The notes: a model not told the origin generated them from the letters alone. A stretch of 64,000 nt of DNA from Escherichia coli (GCF_022846255.1 NZ_AP025682.1); one strand, 5' to 3'. Positions 8,231 to 61,369 are shown, counted from the stretch's first letter. Translations and numbers: made by a program.

Positions 8231-8911
8231 CTATTTGACGGTTTTTACTTTTTCACTCAAATAGTTCCCATGGTCATCAATCAGCGTAATTGTATATTGA
8301 TTGATGGCTAAGGCTGTGGTGATAGTCTTATCTGACCAGGGGGCTAATAACAACGTTTCGTGATTTATTTTTCCACTTCCCATCAACTCAGGAATAGTTA
8401 TCCAGTTTGCGGAGTTGTTTTTGATATTAATACCACCATTGGCATGCTTAATGCTCAGACGACGAAAACTTTCTTTATCTACGCCAGTAAGTCCCTCTGG
8501 GCGGTAGATAAATTTAATACGATTCTGCATGGCGAATTTTATGCCATTCTTATCTTCTAATTCGGGGCAATTAGGTGGGATGTCTAGCACATTAAGGAAG
8601 AATAGGCTTTCGCGATCTTTTGGTAGTGTATTCGCCAATTTTTTGATTTTGAGTTGTTGCCCTTCCCCCCCTTTTACGTGAGCGACCGGTGGCGTCAACA
8701 CAAACGGAACATGAATTTTTTCTGGGGGTAGACTGGTATCGCCATCATCAATCCATGACTGAACCAGGGCGCTACGATTACCTTCATTCATTAACTGAAC
8801 GGTAATCTCTTTTTTCTTTTCTGGATAAATAACACGAGTGCCGTAGATATAGACACCACTCCACGCAGGCGTGACTATGCCGGCCAGCAAGAAGGCTATT
8901 AATTTTTTCAT
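8231..8911 (-). CDS. fimbrial periplasmic chaperone (PapD/FimC family)
   Basis: 226-aa ORF with signal peptide MKKLIAFLLAGIVTPAWS; size and operon position. Confidence 0.88.
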   Translation of the reverse strand: MKKLIAFLLAGIVTPAWSGVYIYGTRVIYPEKKKEITVQLMNEGNRSALVQSWIDDGDTSLPPEKIHVPFVLTPPVAHVKGGEGQQLKIKKLANTLPKDRESLFFLNVLDIPPNCPELEDKNGIKFAMQNRIKFIYRPEGLTGVDKESFRRLSIKHANGGINIKNNSANWITIPELMGSGKINHETLLLAPWSDKTITTALAINQYTITLIDDHGNYLSEKVKTVK

Positions 8912-25911: not shown

Positions 25912-26904
25912 ATGGTGAAATCGACGTCATGTATAACCATTGATTTAATGAATATGTCGCAGCTAACTGAACGGACCTTTACGCCATCTGAATCTCTCAG
26001 CAGCCTGTCACTTTTTCTTAGTCTGGCACGTGGACAGTGTCGGCCGGGTAAATTCTGGCATCGCCGTAGTTTTCGCCAGAAATTTTTGCTGCGCTCGTTG
26101 ATTATGCCGCGTTTAAGCGTTGAGTGGATGAACGAACTTTCCCACTGGCCTAATCTCAATGTGTTGTTAACGCGCCAGCCGCGACTGCCTGTGCGTCTGC
26201 ATCGCCCTTACCTTGCGGCGAATCTTAGCCGTAAGCAATTGCTGGAGGCGTTACGTTACCATTATGCGTTACTCCGCGGGTGTATGTCGGCGGAAGAATT
26301 CAGCTTATATTTGAATACCCCCGGGCTGCAACTGGCGAAGCTGGAAGGCAAAAACGGCGAGCAGTTCACACTTGAGCTGACCATGATGATCTCAATGGAT
26401 AAAGAAGGTGACAGCACAATCCTGTTTCGCAACAGCGAAGGTATTCCTCTGGCAGAGATCACGTTTACCCTGTGTGAATATCAGGGGAAAAGAACAATGT
26501 TTATTGGCGGACTGCAAGGCGCAAAATGGGAAATCCCACATCAGGAAATCCAGAATGCGACGAAAGCCTGCCACGGGCTATTTCCCAAACGCCTCGTGAT
26601 GGAAGCGGCCTGTCTGTTTGCCCAACGTTTGCAGGTAGAGCAGATTATTGCCGTCAGCAATGAAACGCATATTTACCGCAGCCTGCGTTATCGTGATAAA
26701 GAAGGCAAGATCCATGCCGATTACAACGCGTTCTGGGAGTCGGTTGGCGGCGTATGTGATGCTGAACGTCATTACCGCCTTCCAGCACAGATAGCACGAA
26801 AAGAGATTGCCGAAATCGCCAGTAAAAAACGGGCTGAATACCGTCGGCGCTATGAGATGCTCGACGCTATTCAGCCACAAATGGCCACGATGTTTCGCGG
26901 TTAA
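25912..26904 (+). CDS. ybjX: DUF535/VirK-like protein YbjX
   Basis: 330-aa ORF in the recalled K-12 position between macA and ybjD; start not verified (alternative MSQLTERTF...). Confidence 0.75.
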   Translation: MVKSTSCITIDLMNMSQLTERTFTPSESLSSLSLFLSLARGQCRPGKFWHRRSFRQKFLLRSLIMPRLSVEWMNELSHWPNLNVLLTRQPRLPVRLHRPYLAANLSRKQLLEALRYHYALLRGCMSAEEFSLYLNTPGLQLAKLEGKNGEQFTLELTMMISMDKEGDSTILFRNSEGIPLAEITFTLCEYQGKRTMFIGGLQGAKWEIPHQEIQNATKACHGLFPKRLVMEAACLFAQRLQVEQIIAVSNETHIYRSLRYRDKEGKIHADYNAFWESVGGVCDAERHYRLPAQIARKEIAEIASKKRAEYRRRYEMLDAIQPQMATMFRG

Positions 26905-38241: not shown

Positions 38242-39255
38242 ATGAAGGTACTGGTTACCGGCGCCACCAGCGGCTTAGGTCGAAACGCGGTAGAGTTTTT
38301 ATGCCAGAAAGGCATCAGCGTGCGAGCGACCGGTCGCAACGAGGCAATGGGTAAATTGCTGGAAAAAATGGGCGCAGAGTTTGTTCCGGCGGATCTGACC
38401 GAGCTGGTCTCATCACAAGCTAAAGTGATGCTCGCGGGCATTGATACGCTGTGGCACTGCTCCAGCTTTACCTCGCCCTGGGGGACACAACAGGCTTTCG
38501 ATCTGGCTAACGTTCGCGCCACTCGCCGCCTGGGTGAATGGGCTGTCGCCTGGGGTGTGCGTAACTTTATTCATATCTCTTCCCCCTCCCTGTACTTCGA
38601 TTATCACCACCATCGCGATATTAAAGAAGATTTTCGCCCTCACCGCTTCGCCAACGAGTTTGCCCGCAGCAAAGCAGCCAGCGAAGAGGTGATCAATATG
38701 CTTTCGCAGGCGAATCCACAAACGCGCTTTACTATTCTGCGCCCACAAAGTCTGTTCGGACCGCACGATAAAGTCTTTATCCCCCGTCTGGCGCATATGA
38801 TGCACCACTATGGCAGCATTCTGTTACCGCATGGCGGCAGTGCGCTGGTGGATATGACCTACTATGAAAATGCCGTGCACGCCATGTGGCTGGCAAGCCA
38901 GGAAGCCTGCGATAAGCTACCTTCCGGGCGTGTGTACAACATCACCAATGGCGAGCATCGCACACTGCGCAGCATCGTGCAGAAGCTGATCGACGAGTTG
39001 AATATTGACTGTCGTATTCGTTCCGTCCCCTACCCGATGCTGGATATGATCGCCCGCAGCATGGAGCGTTTAGGTCGCAAGTCAGCTAAAGAGCCGCCGC
39101 TAACCCACTACGGCGTCTCCAAGTTGAATTTTGACTTTACGCTGGATATTACGCGCGCGCAGGAAGAGCTAGGTTATCAGCCAGTCCTTACCCTGGATGA
39201 AGGTATCGAGAAAACTGCCGCCTGGCTACGCGACCACGGAAAACTGCCGCGCTAA
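38242..39255 (+). CDS. ybjS: NAD-dependent epimerase/dehydratase-family protein YbjS
   Basis: ORF trimmed to [20 protein letters not shown]... (337 aa). Confidence 0.85.
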
Positions 39256-48635: not shown

Positions 48636-49769
48636 TTAAACCGTCAGCACCACACAGCTGTCCACTTCCCAGCACAAACGTACTTCGTCGCCCCAGGTCG
48701 GTAACCCTTTACGATGACGATGGGCGTTTTGTAGCTGGGCGCTGATCATCTGCCCACTTTTCAGACGAACGTGATACACCGAAAGATCGCCGAGATAGGC
48801 AATGTGTATCACCTCCCCCACCGCGAAGTTACAACCATTGGCGGGCGGCTCTTCGCAAAGCATGATTTTTTCCGGACGCAGCGCTACGTGTACCGGCACG
48901 TTATCAACCACTGAAGCATCTGCATCGACTTTCAGTGGGTGCACCAGTCCCGGCGAATAAAGCACCAGACCATCTTCCTGACGCTCTTTGAGTACACCTT
49001 CAAAGACATTAACCGAACCGATAAATTCAGCGCTATAGCGGGTGGTCGGATGCTCGTAGATCTCTTCCGGTTCGCCAATCTGGACAAATTTCCCACGATT
49101 CATAATGGCGATACGCCCCGCCATGGTCATCGCCTCTTCCTGATCGTGGGTGACCATCACACAAGTCACACCGACACGCTCCAGAATATCCACCACTTCA
49201 AGCTGCATCCGGTCACGCAGCTTTTTATCCAGCGCGCCCATCGGCTCATCGAGCAGTAATAGTTTCGGGCGCTTGGCAAGGCTTCTGGCCAGGGCCACAC
49301 GCTGACGCTGACCACCGGAAAGCTGATGCGGTTTGCGTTTGGCGAACTCCTGCATATGCACCAGCCCAAGCATCTCATTGACCCGGCTGGCAATTTCCGC
49401 TTTCGGTAGTTTGTCCTGTTTCAGGCCAAAAGCGATGTTCTGTTCCACGGTCATATGCGGAAACAGCGCGTAAGACTGAAACATCATATTGATGGGGCGC
49501 AGGTAAGGCGGCACCTGTGACAAATCGACGCCATCGAGCATAATCTGCCCGGCAGAAGGTTGTTCAAAACCTGCCAGCATACGCAGCAGCGTGGACTTGC
49601 CACAGCCGGATGCGCCCAGCAGCGCGAAGATTTCACCTTTGTAGATGGTCAGGCTGACATCATCCACCGCATGTTGACCATCGTAGGATTTGGTCAGGTT
49701 ACGGATTTCTAATAGCGGCGTCAGCGCCTTACGGGTTTTCGCCTGCGGGCGAGGGATAGCGTCATTCAC
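48636..49769 (-). CDS. potG: putrescine ABC transporter ATP-binding protein PotG
   Basis: ORF 48636..49850 trimmed to the GTG at 49769 (VNDAIPRPQAKTRK...), 377 aa; Walker A GASGCGKST. Confidence 0.9.
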   Translation of the reverse strand: MNDAIPRPQAKTRKALTPLLEIRNLTKSYDGQHAVDDVSLTIYKGEIFALLGASGCGKSTLLRMLAGFEQPSAGQIMLDGVDLSQVPPYLRPINMMFQSYALFPHMTVEQNIAFGLKQDKLPKAEIASRVNEMLGLVHMQEFAKRKPHQLSGGQRQRVALARSLAKRPKLLLLDEPMGALDKKLRDRMQLEVVDILERVGVTCVMVTHDQEEAMTMAGRIAIMNRGKFVQIGEPEEIYEHPTTRYSAEFIGSVNVFEGVLKERQEDGLVLYSPGLVHPLKVDADASVVDNVPVHVALRPEKIMLCEEPPANGCNFAVGEVIHIAYLGDLSVYHVRLKSGQMISAQLQNAHRHRKGLPTWGDEVRLCWEVDSCVVLTV

Positions 49770-49863
49770 GGCTGCTCTCCGGCATTGAATGTGTGCAAGC
49801 GCACCATGATGGTGCGAATTGCCGGCGGGTGTGGTGCGCCCGTCCGGCATCTACGGCTGCGGA

Positions 49864-50976
49864 TTATTTTCCGCTCTTCACTTTGGTCCACGCGCGGGTG
49901 CGCACACGGTCGATTTTCGGGTCCTGCACTTTCAGAGTGAACAGCTTCGCACGAACATCCGCAGGCGGATAAATACCCGGGTTATCACGGACTTCCGCAC
50001 TCACCAGCGGCGTGGCTGCTTTATTGGCGTTAGCATAGAACACATGGTCAGAGATATGTGCCACCACATCAGGACGCAGCAGGTAATTCAGGAACTGATA
50101 GGCTTCGTCTTTGTTTTTGGCATCCGCAGGCATGGCGAATACATCAAAGAACGCCATCGCCCCTTCTTTTGGAATCGAGAACGAGACATTCACGCCATTC
50201 TTCGCTTCCTTCGCGCGGTTTGACGCCTGCCAGACATCGCCCGCCCAGCCAATAGCGACACAGATGTCACCATTCGCCAGATCATTGATGTATTGGGATG
50301 AATGGAAATAACGAATGTTCGGGCGCAGCTTTAACAGCAGATCGGTAGCCGGTCCGGTGTAATCATCCGCTTTAGTGCTGTTAGGATCTTTGCCGAGATA
50401 ATTCAGCACGGTAGCAAACACTTCTTCTGGCGCATCGAGGAAAGAGACACCGCAGCTTTTCAGTTTTTCCAGATTTTCAGGTTTGAGGATCAAGTCCCAG
50501 CTATCGACGGGCGCGTTTTCGCCCAGCACCGCTTTAACTTTATCGACGTTATAGCCAATCCCGGTCGTCGCCCACATATAGGGCATAGCAAATTTATTGT
50601 CGGGATCGTGTTTGGCGACCAACTTCAGCAGCTCCGGATCGAGATTCTTCCACTCCGGCAATTTGCTTTTATCCAGCGGCTGGAAAACTCCCGCTGTCAG
50701 CTGGCGCTCAAGAAAGCTTGCTGACGGCACCACCAGATCAAAGCCGGTGCTCCCCGCCATTAATTTGCCTTCCAGTACTTCGTTAGAATCGAAAACATCG
50801 TAGACGACTTTAATACCGGTTTCTTTTTCAAAGTTGGCCACCGTGTCCGGGGCGATATAATCAGACCAGTTATAAATGTGGAGTGTTTTTTGTTCAGCCG
50901 CGAGCGTGCTGACAGAGACGGCCATCAGAGCCCCCGCAACCAGACCCGATAGCCATTTTTTATTTAAGGCGGTCAT
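49864..50976 (-). CDS. potF: putrescine-binding periplasmic protein PotF
   Basis: ORF 49864..51120 trimmed to MTALNKKWLSGLVAGALMAVSVSTLAA... (370 aa); RBS present. Confidence 0.92.
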   Translation of the reverse strand: MTALNKKWLSGLVAGALMAVSVSTLAAEQKTLHIYNWSDYIAPDTVANFEKETGIKVVYDVFDSNEVLEGKLMAGSTGFDLVVPSASFLERQLTAGVFQPLDKSKLPEWKNLDPELLKLVAKHDPDNKFAMPYMWATTGIGYNVDKVKAVLGENAPVDSWDLILKPENLEKLKSCGVSFLDAPEEVFATVLNYLGKDPNSTKADDYTGPATDLLLKLRPNIRYFHSSQYINDLANGDICVAIGWAGDVWQASNRAKEAKNGVNVSFSIPKEGAMAFFDVFAMPADAKNKDEAYQFLNYLLRPDVVAHISDHVFYANANKAATPLVSAEVRDNPGIYPPADVRAKLFTLKVQDPKIDRVRTRAWTKVKSGK

Positions 50977-51034
50977 ATCTCTTTCCTTCTGAAAATTCGT
51001 TAACAAACGAACAAAAGTTGTCACACTGAAAGAT

Positions 51035-51051
51035 ATGCAATAAACGTGCAT
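51035..51051 (-). promoter_or_regulatory. candidate sigma54 (-24/-12) promoter for potFGHI
   Basis: minus strand reads aTGCACG-TTTA-TTGCAt, a partial match to TGGCACG-N4-TTGCW; potFGHI recalled as Ntr-regulated. Confidence 0.3.
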
Positions 51052-51325
51052 ATTTTTATCGGCGCGGTGTAAGAAAAGAGAACTCTCTCCCGGCCTGCAC
51101 TGCTCACTATATAAAAGCATCGCAAGAATAACTTTAGCCAGGGTTTGAGACTATAGCTCGGATTAAAAAACGGTATTTAACAAATTTTTATGCGTATTTG
51201 CTCTATGTGATAAAGCCAAATCGGCACAAGAGAAGTGAATTAATCTTTAATAAAAGGTTAAAAACAGCGGATAATTTTGCGGCACGCAGTCACTGCGGCA
51301 GCGACTGCGTGCTCGAAAGGAGTTA

Positions 51326-51802
51326 TCAGTGGAGGAAATAGTTTTCGGTAACGTTATTTTGCCCTTCATCGTCAGTCGGTAACAGCAGTTGATGGGCATT
51401 AGCTTCAAGAATGACCATCGAAATCTGCTCTTCGCTCTGACGCACGAACCATGCAAACTGCTCATAGGTTACGCCCTGCATAACGGATAAAGACTGGCAA
51501 ACCACCAGCTTTGGCAGATTATCATCCTGCATATCAAGAAATGCTTTCACGGTCAGCGAACTGGCATTGATGGCTGATAAATCCGCCGCCAGCGGCAATA
51601 CAGCTGAAGGTCGGACTTCCGCCATGGCAGAAAACAGGATCGTGTTATCGATCAGATCGATTTTAGCATCAAAGACACCGTCGAAATTCTGCATATGGGG
51701 CAGATGCAGAGCCTGACAGTTATCACATTCAAAAAAACTCATCCCCAGGTCATCGAGCCATTGACGCAACGTATCCAGACCAGGAACGACCAGCGATGTC
51801 AT
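51326..51802 (-). CDS. ybjN: YbjN-family protein (putative sensory transduction regulator)
   Basis: ORF trimmed to MTSLVVPGLDTLRQWLDDL... (158 aa). Confidence 0.85.
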   Translation of the reverse strand: MTSLVVPGLDTLRQWLDDLGMSFFECDNCQALHLPHMQNFDGVFDAKIDLIDNTILFSAMAEVRPSAVLPLAADLSAINASSLTVKAFLDMQDDNLPKLVVCQSLSVMQGVTYEQFAWFVRQSEEQISMVILEANAHQLLLPTDDEGQNNVTENYFLH

Positions 51803-59819: not shown

Positions 59820-59855
59820 ATGCCTGATCGCACAAAGCAATCAGGCATTTTTTTA
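59820..59855. terminator. bidirectional terminator between convergent ybjH and mdfA
   Basis: hairpin ATGCCTGAT-(loop)-ATCAGGCAT followed by a T7 tract. Confidence 0.55.
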
Positions 59856-61085
59856 CCCTTCGTGAGAATTTCCCATCTGTTTATCTTTTAAAAAGATAAC
59901 CATCAGCGACAGCCACAAAATGCCGTTGACAAGGTTGAAGAGATTAAACAGTCCGTTGCCCCCGTTCAGCCAGGCATGTTTGCTGATTTCAATACCGACG
60001 GTAAAGATCAGCATTTGCAGCATCCCCATCGCCGCAGAAACCGTACCTTTACTCATATCGCTGGCAAACAGGGTTAATCGCACCAGTCCCGCATTCGCCA
60101 GACCAATACCGAAAGCATAAATACTTAACCCGGCGGTCATCCATAAATACGCGTGCGATGAGATAACCGTTGCCGCAGCAGCGACCAACAGACCAATCAT
60201 AATCGGCCAGCCGCCCATAATAATCAGCGAACGTACGGTGCGGCGCGAGGTCAGACGCGCTAACAGCAAGTTACCCGCAATTAACGCCCCAAAAATAGGC
60301 ACTTGCAGCAAGCCATATTCATAGCTGCTCAACTGCTCACCGGTAATAATGATAATCGGCGACTGGGCGATCCACGCCAACAACGGCAGGCTAACGAATC
60401 CCAGCGCCAGCGCCCCCGCCACAAAGCGGCCGTTCTTCAGCACCAGCTTATAGTCACGACCGAGTTCTTTCAGCGACAGTTTCTCGCCTATACGCGTGGC
60501 GGTTTCAGGCATAGCTCGTTGCAGACCGAAAAAGGAGATCGCTGCCAATGCGGCAAACAAGACAAACATCCCTTCCCAGGGCAGCACATGGATCCACGCC
60601 GCGCCCACCAGCGGACCAAGTAGTGGAGCAATCAGCGCCACGTTCGCCATTAGCGCGGTGATCTTGATACAAACGGCCTCTTCGAAGGATTCCTGAATTG
60701 CGGCGTATCCCACAGCGCCAATGAAGCAGAGGCTTATGCCCTGCAAGAAGCGCAACAGGGTGAATTGTTCAATGTTTTGCGCCAGTAATATTGCCAGACA
60801 GGTGACGATAAACCACACCACTCCCGCCAACATCACCGGACGGCGGCCAATACGATCCGACAACGGCCCCAGGAGCCATTGTAAAAACATCCCGCCCGCC
60901 AGATACGCAGTCATCGAAGTAGGAACCCAATCAATGCCCGCCTGATATTGTTCCACCACGACCAACATACCGGGTTGAATCATATCGTTGCCGATATAGG
61001 TTGAAAATTCGTAAAGCACCAGACAGAGAGGGAAAAGTAACGCCTGACGTCCAAGCCTGGCACCGGAAGCTAATTTATTTTGCAT
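59853..61085 (-). CDS. mdfA: MFS multidrug efflux transporter MdfA (Cmr)
   Basis: ORF trimmed to [40 protein letters not shown]... (410 aa). Confidence 0.95.
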
Positions 61086-61369
61086 GCAATTTCTTCGCCA
61101 ATAATAATCGCGCAAAGTTTAATAAAAGCGCAGCTAACGAGAAAGCGAATTTTGTAGCTGAAACCACGGTTAAGCACATTCTTACATTATTGCGAGTATA
61201 GCTACGCTTTCTTTAAGTTTTATTTAACCTTTGCCCGTTACAATCACCTACCGTAAACAGGGCGCTTGAGGGAAATAAGACGATGCCGCTTTACCCAGTT
61301 TAACCTGCACTTTATTCTCAACGACTTGCCTGTATTGGCTCCCTTTTAATCACTTTGCGTCGGGAAGTT

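Follow-up and report, generated by a model that had tools for sequence, protein, structure and literature searches.

Does the DNA 5' of potF carry a sigma-54 promoter although only one G of the GG dinucleotide is present in its -24 element, and what might activate such a promoter? We addressed these questions in a stretch of 64,000 nucleotides of Escherichia coli DNA (NZ_AP025682.1), here called the window, whose minus strand carries, in order, rimK, ybjN, a 349-nt spacer, potF, a second spacer, and potG. PotF and PotG match NCBIfam equivalogs over their full length, and the ybjN-potF spacer contains the promoter candidate. The features of this region are as follows.

51326..51802, minus strand: ybjN, the upstream gene, on the same strand as potF
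51036..51052, minus strand: very probable sigma-54 -24/-12 promoter element of potFGHI, TATGCACGTTTATTGCA (sequence, ChIP-seq identity, and conservation)
51024..51025, minus strand: predicted transcription start (rule of PMC4591121 Table 1, carried to window coordinates by counting)
50977..51023, minus strand: predicted 5' leader with an inverted repeat
49864..50976, minus strand: potF CDS, periplasmic putrescine-binding protein (NCBIfam equivalog NF007962, 832 bits; annotated in matching E. coli records)
48636..49769, minus strand: potG CDS, GTG start, second gene of the operon (NCBIfam equivalog NF008621, 852 bits; K-12 annotation)

The preliminary description had drawn attention to a minus-strand string about 60 bp upstream of the potF start that resembled the -24/-12 consensus with one G of the GG missing. 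Direct reading of the window confirmed the string, which is aTGCACGTTTATTGCAt at 51051..51035, as well as its likeness and its place, since 59 nt separate the motif end from the potF ATG at 50976. Put in the register of sigma-54 sites, it becomes the 17-mer TATGCACGTTTATTGCA (51052..51036). The -24 element is ATGCAC (51051..51046, minus strand) and the -12 element is TTGCA (51040..51036), with the GC within TTGCW present; the spacing in ATGCAC-GTTTA-TTGC is exactly that of the consensus TGGCAC-N5-TTGC, and the YG following GCA also agrees with the sigma-54 consensus. The departure lies at motif positions 2-3, which read AT versus TG in TGGCAC-N5-TTGCW, with a T at 51050 (position 3) where the consensus puts the first G of GG. 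The two G residues of the -24 element are the most conserved bases among sigma-54 promoters. Such promoters start transcription about 12 nt 3' of the -12 GC and need rpoN together with an enhancer-binding protein. The potF motif stands in sense orientation a short distance 5' of the gene, and the rule that places the start 19 nt 3' of the motif centre (PMC4591121 Table 1) predicts a potF leader of 49 nt.

How good is this match compared with chance? The pattern TGCACGNNNNTTGCA occurred once in the window versus 0.07 occurrences expected from shuffles, and 7 of 100 shuffles gave at least one match. We scored the window with a weight matrix built from 134 sigma-54 ChIP-seq motifs (Bonocora 2015, PMC4591121), the potF site being left out of the 135. 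With this leave-one-out matrix, the potF site reached 8.6 bits, where the training sites have a median of 14.4; no more than 2 of these 134 scored lower, which places the potF site in the lowest 2% of bound sites. Scores at least as high were found at 47 of the 127,968 window positions, with the potF site at rank 47, and a 350-nt spacer would by expectation contain about 0.13 equally good matches on its sense strand. On the potF strand of the ybjN-potF region, the best matrix match was TATGCACGTTTATTGCA. The weight-matrix scan proposed in the preliminary description thus returned a real match, but one that is marginal by sequence alone and by which the potF site would not be called; the resemblance to the consensus, real as it is, does not by itself clearly exceed chance. 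The potF site stands above chance because of its position, its conservation, and the published binding data. As for the missing base, the first G of -24 is replaced in 5 of the 135 high-stringency bound sites (by A in 3 and by T in 2); GG at -24 is usual, not obligatory, for binding in vivo.

A chance resemblance, unrelated to sigma-54, would sit well with the absence of one G and with the 46 window positions that outscore the potF site, among which only the mdfA site is reported as bound. The latter, TTGGCGAAGAAATTGCA (61085-61101, minus strand; matrix score 15.5), is identical to ChIP-seq site OS07 of Bonocora 2015, which was assigned to the mdfA/rcdA region with a fold-above-threshold of 10 (PMC4591121). 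It is the second known sigma-54 site in the window and lies at the 5' end of a 420-aa ORF (59853..61115, minus strand). The top matrix score of the window, 16.9 bits, belongs to TTGGCATGCTTAATGCT (8439-8455, plus strand), which is antisense within a fimbrial chaperone gene (8231..8911; NCBIfam NF011764) that seems to be strain-specific. Further strong matches lie at 26704-26720 (minus strand) and 38788-38804 (plus strand), and none of these three is a reported ChIP site. Apart from the mdfA site, no binding is reported for the stronger window matches with counterparts in K-12, and such unbound high scorers show that the matrix score is a poor predictor of binding. Conversely, the potF site is recognisable from the sequence and bound in vivo, though a standard weight matrix would miss it. 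The ChIP-seq peak centred on the motif effectively refutes chance, and conservation across genera at a fixed distance argues against it as well, so that we consider a fortuitous match extremely improbable.

The binding data come from E. coli K-12, where TATGCACGTTTATTGCA is identical to ChIP-seq site OS08, 5' of potF (Bonocora 2015, PMC4591121). The peak centre (892944) and the motif centre (892939, plus strand) are 5 bp apart, and the predicted start is placed 49 nt 5' of potF with the EcoCyc status "predicted" (PMC4591121 Table 1); S3 Table pairs a listed region, 892604-893381, with OS08 (PMC4591121). Occupancy was low, with a fold-above-threshold of 2, and the authors reported a sigma-54 peak at all 15 described NtrC-regulated operons (PMC4591121). 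The RegulonDB list of sigma-54 promoters included potF by 2011 (PMC3118216). The possible sigma-54 promoter noted earlier 5' of potF is supported by this identity and this listing; the element is the already catalogued sigma-54 (RpoN) promoter of potFGHI and is not new. Compared with potFp of K-12 (RegulonDB/EcoCyc predicted; OS08), the window has the same element, with an identical 17-mer at an equal distance from potF, and the only nearby differences are an A tract of A5 in the window versus A6 and one leader base. In the literature searched, we found neither a mapped sigma-70 start without RpoN dependence nor a mapped start of any kind for potF, nor did we find promoter mutagenesis, reporter mutagenesis, or in vitro transcription of its promoter; potF is unmentioned in Zhao 2010, Samuels 2013, and Brown 2014. 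For the start point, the EcoCyc label "predicted" still appears apt.

Five aligned E. coli sequences (the window, K-12, HS, LD91-1, and one divergent strain) agree fully in the motif and its near flanks. The length of the upstream A tract varies among the aligned strains, and the spacer of the divergent strain is only 84% identical overall with the motif unchanged. The 381 bases round the site match ATCC 11775 at 100% identity, and 5419 of 5426 complete E. coli genomes contain them; a 51-nt stretch round the motif was found in 5347 of the 5426 at ≥90% identity. We then compared 80 potF loci, taking one genome per species. In nearly all Enterobacteriaceae loci, the top matrix match within 400 nt 5' of potF was this motif. 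Its end lies 58-60 nt from the ATG in Escherichia, Citrobacter, Enterobacter, Klebsiella, Raoultella, Kosakonia, Lelliottia, Phytobacter, Trabulsiella, Superficieibacter, Pluralibacter, and Pseudescherichia, and 65-108 nt from it in Siccibacter, Mangrovibacter, Buttiauxella, and Cedecea. Across 51 distinct sequences, drawn from about 15 genera, the flanks ATGCA and TTGCAT did not vary, a count that is partly circular in that the selection pattern forced most flank positions, including A2 and T3, and left T18 unforced; the -12 element was constant in the same sequences except for CTGCA in Kluyvera. The spacer was variable, and its positions 7-13 varied as in sigma-54 sites (Y at 7, G at 8, and T at 10, 11, and 13), while positions past 19 varied freely. 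Salmonella (TATGCACATTTCAGGCAT) and Yokenella (TATGCATTTATTGCAT), which the pattern missed, still read ATGCA; the Yokenella spacer is 2 bp shorter, and its match to the sigma-54 pattern is lost. In Yersinia, Rahnella, Pectobacterium, Dickeya, and their relatives, the region upstream of potF is unrelated. These observations agree with the S5 scores of Bonocora et al., which are 6.7-8.1 in Citrobacter, Enterobacter, Klebsiella, Cedecea, Raoultella, and Cronobacter, 2.6 in Salmonella, and -1.1 in Yokenella (PMC4591121). On the strength of the alignments, the pattern is the footprint expected for a -24/-12 element under selection.

In Kluyvera and Pseudocitrobacter (L016, L017, L023, and L044), we found an extra canonical sigma-54 site, TTGGCGAGATTTTTGCA, with a score of 16-17 bits. 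It lies 140-265 nt 5' of potF, in a lineage-specific insertion upstream of the ATGCA-type site, and two tandem sigma-54 sites therefore precede potF in these genera. Homology of this canonical site to E. coli TTGCGATGCTTTTATA was rejected, as the alignment shows a lineage-specific insertion.

TGGCA was never present at this place in any locus, though a single T-to-G change would give the consensus, and A2, T3, and T18, which are outside the demands of sigma-54, complete the inverted repeat ATGCA-N7-TGCAT. The conserved TG allows two readings: either selection keeps the promoter weak, or a symmetric regulator co-uses the site. In the latter case, the site would double as the operator of a symmetric dimeric regulator that competes with the sigma-54 holoenzyme or tunes it, which we regard as unlikely. 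An operator would account for the constancy of A2, T3, and T18 beside free neighbours in the 51 distinct sequences (with only T18 unforced by the pattern), for ATGCA in the unselected Salmonella and Yokenella sequences, and for the fact that a G at position 3 would better sigma-54 binding, yet never occurs. However, the motif interior is asymmetric and follows sigma-54 preferences, and the symmetry stops at 5 bp, positions 1 and 19 being non-complementary in many genera. A weak -24 element selected for low occupancy also explains T3, but neither A2 nor T18.

Two known sets of sites bear on the same question. The operators of NsrR at hmp and ytfE, AAGATGCATTT-n-AAATACATCTT, have the ATGCA arm and the N7 spacing of the potF repeat (ATGCA-N7-TACAT in the K-12 sequence), but their A/T-rich inner positions, TTT/AAA, are absent from potF, and the literature searched held no link between NsrR and potF; we therefore rejected an NsrR operator at potF and keep the resemblance as a weak lead only. 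A likeness to the AtoC operator was also dropped, PMC3118216 doing no more than listing potF in the RegulonDB sigma-54 set. The closer relative is the ygfT site (Bonocora OS32, TATGCCCGTTTATTGCA; K-12 locus L084): a T in place of the first G is confined, among the 284 ChIP sites of high or low stringency, to those of potF and ygfT. The ygfT site has 20 of 21 bases in common with potF (ATATGCnCGTTTATTGCAT, window 51033-51054), counting the spacer, which is normally free, and the T that follows TTGCA, despite unrelated flanks (34% identity over 257 nt), and this favours a shared operator; position 6 is C in ygfT versus A in potF. Like potF, the ygfT site has a low occupancy (3), and its cluster is also nitrogen-related (purine catabolism); it is poorly conserved in other genera (Bonocora S5 table).

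Zimmer et al. are said to have placed potFGHI in the Ntr regulon in 2000. Upon nitrogen depletion, the mRNA of potG rises 6.0-fold and that of potI 3.2-fold, an induction that Shimada et al. attributed to RpoN and NtrC (Shimada 2021, PMC8743547) and that fits the Ntr-dependent expression of potFGHI named in the preliminary description. Weighing against sigma-54 control, potF was absent from the genes changed by sigma-54 overexpression (Bonocora S4, PMC4591121); to judge from the primer table, its site was absent from the individual retests in an rpoN deletion strain (PMC4591121). In gSELEX with the RpoN holoenzyme, Shimada et al. also located the highest peak of the genome in the ybjN/potF spacer and gave it to TTTGCATGGTTCGTGGC, inside ybjN (PMC8743547). 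With its coordinate of 892632, the peak falls between the ybjN-internal sequence and the ChIP-seq motif of potF, about 300 bp upstream of the latter. We rejected TTTGCATGGTTCGTGGC as the motif of that peak: located at 51441..51457 on the minus strand inside ybjN, it scores 6.1 bits and lacks a proper -12 element, and it does not displace the ChIP-seq motif. At 51441-51457, this strain reads TTTGCATGGTTCGTGCG, with 2 mismatches to the K-12 sequence; it contains TGCAT, the first G being replaced by T as in the potF site.

Lrp, ArgR, and ArcA also bind the potF promoter region, with sites annotated in EcoCyc; therefore, sigma-54 is not the whole story and not the sole control of potF. One could go further and suppose that sigma-54 binds without forming a working promoter, potF being driven by sigma-70 promoters farther upstream under ArgR, Lrp, and ArcA and responding to nitrogen indirectly. 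In keeping with this, Bonocora et al. stressed that many sigma-54-bound sites may never fire (PMC4591121), occupancy at potF is low, and the 350-nt spacer is strongly conserved upstream of the motif. Furthermore, a 560-bp promoter-trap fragment of strain UTI89, which ends at potF +24 and does not contain the NtrC-type palindrome described below, drives a reporter; its activity may come from other promoters. A consensus scan of 50900-51400 gave no sigma-70-like promoter on the potF strand and no intrinsic terminator, and both were rejected for the site. Against a non-working site, the motif has the position and orientation of a working promoter, its predicted leader being 49 nt long and its distance from the ATG being fixed in many genera, and the pairing of kept flanks with a variable spacer argues that binding is under selection. 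The nitrogen induction of potG and potI has been attributed to RpoN and NtrC (PMC8743547), and the extra canonical site in Kluyvera and Pseudocitrobacter makes sigma-54 control of potF a feature of the clade. We therefore think it very unlikely that the site is idle, and we hold with good confidence that TATGCACGTTTATTGCA is the promoter from which sigma-54 (RpoN) drives potFGHI, the operon of the putrescine ABC transporter.

The rest of the ybjN-potF spacer showed structure of its own. Its upstream half (about 51110-51300, minus strand) is unusually well conserved between genera, with the conserved blocks TTATTCAC, GGCTTATCACATAGA, and TGCATAAAAAATTGATAAAAGGCGTTTTTTAATCTGGGCTATAGCC, the inverted repeat CTATAGCC-N9-GGCTACAG, and TTATTCTTGCGA. 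ACGCATAAAAATTTGTTA (about 51196..51178) resembles an ARG box and fits the ArgR, Lrp, and ArcA sites in EcoCyc. No sigma-70 promoter could be assigned by consensus in this part (about 51110-51300, minus strand). A variable hairpin lies 20-25 nt upstream of the -24 element, at about 51068-51095 on the minus strand of the window and at the orthologous loci (GGGAGAGG..CCTCTCTCC in Klebsiella, CCGGAGCA..TGCTCTCCGG in Kosakonia, and GGGAGAGA..TCTCTTTTC in E. coli). A T run follows it in some genera only, and the E. coli fold is no better than that of shuffles. The hairpin suggests a transcribed structure or an attenuator fed by an upstream promoter.

Downstream of the promoter, the predicted potF leader contains the inverted repeat GTTCGTT-tgtt-AACGAA (about 51012..50996, minus strand), directly before the Shine-Dalgarno sequence AGAAGGAA. 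The arms of the repeat differ by genus (GTTCG/CGAAC, GTCCG/CGGGC, and GTCC/GGAC) around a constant GTTAAC core, and the E. coli leader folds no better than shuffles (z = -0.1). Either an ArcA box (TGTTAA) or a structure of the leader RNA could account for the repeat. Its place is taken in Siccibacter, Cedecea, and Buttiauxella by a G+C-rich hairpin with TTTTTACCC behind it, an attenuator-like arrangement. A search of 49600-51500 against Rfam (E ≤ 1) returned no known RNA family, so that such families were rejected for the ybjN-potF spacer, the leader, and the potF-potG spacer.

NtrC sites (TGCACC-N5-GGTGCA, usually two) are ordinarily found 100-150 bp upstream of the promoter. There was no NtrC-like site in the usual -100 to -150 region of the potF promoter, and in a scan of the whole window no match upstream of the promoter exceeded 9/14, the best lying at 51223..51239. 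Instead, the best match in the window to TGCACCAnnnTGGTGCA lies within the operon, in the spacer between potF and potG, which contains the following features.

49821..49848, minus strand: G+C-rich hairpin GCCGGACGGG...CCCGCCGGC, directly 3' of the potF stop, probably an intercistronic RNA structure
49800..49816, no strand assigned: NtrC-type palindrome CGCACCATCATGGTGCG, candidate enhancer, 12/14 match to TGCACCAnnnTGGTGCA
49781..49797, no strand assigned: weaker second NtrC-like site TGCACACATTCAATGCC, 8/14 to the consensus by hand count

CGCACCATCATGGTGCG is a perfect palindrome, about 1.22 kb downstream of the predicted potF start, and ends about 30 nt before the potG start codon. The second site, TGCACACATTCAATGCC, begins 19 bp after the start of the palindrome; across species it lies 19-20 bp on and is clearer in other genera, for example TGCACCAGTTTTGATCT. 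The hairpin at 49821..49848 has no T run and is thus probably an intercistronic RNA structure. The potF-potG spacer measures 94 nt in the gene order; taken as 86 nt, it folds with -31.6 kcal/mol (z = -1.9), and the hairpin sequence differs between genera. In many genera, not including E. coli, we observed another hairpin just 5' of the potG ribosome-binding site (L011, L014, L023, L036, L060, L063, L066, L074, and others), whose arms differ yet stay complementary (GTATGG-CACCGG-CCATAC, GTACGG..CCGTAC, and GTGCGG..CCGCAC).

Published NtrC data on this locus conflict. In vitro, CGCACCATCATGGTGCG coincides with an NtrC gSELEX peak at K-12 coordinate 894130 that reaches 95% of the maximum, and a "potG" probe is gel-shifted by NtrC as well as by the RpoN holoenzyme (Shimada 2021, PMC8743547), whereas none of the 21 NtrC ChIP-seq sites of nitrogen-starved cells lies at the pot locus (Brown et al. 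2014). Among the loci compared, the palindrome [TC]GCACC-N5-GGTGC[AG] or a one-off variant was found in 47 of 53 potF-potG spacers from loci with the promoter motif and in 0 of 28 from loci without it (Fisher p = 3e-16), a contrast that is largely phylogenetic because 26 of the 28 motif-less loci are from other families. The informative cases are Salmonella and Yokenella, within the Enterobacteriaceae, in which the promoter motif and the palindrome are each missing or degenerate. No 4.1-kb locus holds a further copy of the strict palindrome. Its inner five pairs showed no compensatory change: all 14 departures were one-sided and broke the pairing, which favours a protein site over an RNA stem, bearing in mind that the palindromes were picked by their match to the NtrC consensus and that this biases the count toward a protein site.

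Shimada et al. regard the spacer site as a "potG promoter" (PMC8743547), and we looked for a sigma-54 promoter beside the palindrome. This candidate was rejected: no sense-strand matrix match of at least 4 bits was present in 49500-50300, the look-alikes are mis-spaced (TGCAC-N8-TGC on the sense strand and GGCA-N10-TGCA on the antisense strand), and no sigma-54 ChIP peak of high or low stringency is listed between 892944 and 939112, hence none near 894130. Moreover, with the palindrome about 30 nt from the potG start codon, there is no room for a promoter. NtrC sites, as Reitzer and Magasanik are said to have found in 1986, can work over kilobase distances and from downstream. Action over this range makes a looping enhancer 1.2 kb downstream mechanistically possible, and we consider it possible, though short of probable, that the palindrome and its weaker neighbour form an enhancer that acts on the potF promoter by DNA looping.

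It may equally be that the promoter is real and the palindrome is not its enhancer, a reading to which we give considerable weight without holding it probable. Activation would then come from weak upstream NtrC sites, from another enhancer-binding protein, or indirectly via Nac or Lrp, and the palindrome would serve separate potG control, act as a roadblock, or form a hairpin that stabilises the potF mRNA. The customary location of NtrC enhancers 100-150 bp upstream and the lack of an NtrC ChIP-seq peak at pot both agree with this reading, as does the assignment to potG of a probe that the RpoN holoenzyme shifts. The activity of the UTI89 promoter-trap fragment, which does not contain the spacer, also speaks against a downstream enhancer, although other promoters may be its source. 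Lrp binds the potF promoter and co-regulates sigma-54 targets, and the palindrome can fold as a 7-bp RNA stem whose outermost pair is mostly C..G or T..A. However, the inner five pairs keep the NtrC half-site and never change in a compensatory manner, which speaks against a stem, and separate potG control by a promoter of its own meets the objections given above. The upstream NtrC matches are all at or below 9/14, and the palindrome is missing from each compared locus in which the potF promoter motif is missing.

Wherever the enhancer lies, in the reading that we favour the sigma-54 RNA polymerase binds the -24 (ATGCAC) and -12 (TTGCA) elements as a closed complex, which alone is unable to start transcription. 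An ATP-hydrolysing enhancer-binding protein, most likely phosphorylated NtrC under nitrogen limitation, remodels this complex, and transcription should then begin about 49 nt before the potF ATG, at the predicted start point. Returning to the looping enhancer, we tentatively propose that the potF promoter combines two oddities: a weak -24 element, held at the non-consensus ATGCA across about 15 genera, and a downstream, intra-operon NtrC enhancer that accompanies the promoter motif only. We infer the identity and the place of the enhancer, which would be the spacer palindrome, looping from about 1.2 kb downstream. Selection may have kept the suboptimal -24 element (TG for GG), leading to a low closed-complex occupancy that would match the low ChIP signal. 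If this proposal is true, nature would provide in potFGHI an example of a sigma-54 promoter that is deliberately weak and is activated over a long range from downstream, and what was published as the "potG promoter" would be the potFp enhancer. As the promoter itself was already catalogued, the residual value of the locus lies in the conserved non-consensus -24 element and in the chance that the "potG promoter" is this enhancer.

The potF promoter can be compared with the NtrC-activated promoters of glnA (glnAp2), glnK, glnH, nac, astC, and patA/ygjG. NtrC-activated promoters have GG at -24 and Bonocora scores of 8.7-11.7, versus TG and 6.8 for potF, and they have NtrC ChIP-seq peaks, whereas none is reported for potF. 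In the glnAp2 group, NtrC sites lie 100-150 bp upstream, whereas potF has no good upstream site and its only strong NtrC-type site lies 1.2 kb downstream, inside the operon. In contrast to these differences, potF shares with this group the -24/-12 architecture and its spacing, a role in nitrogen scavenging, and an operon-linked NtrC palindrome, and patA, which acts in putrescine catabolism, belongs to the same physiological response as potF.
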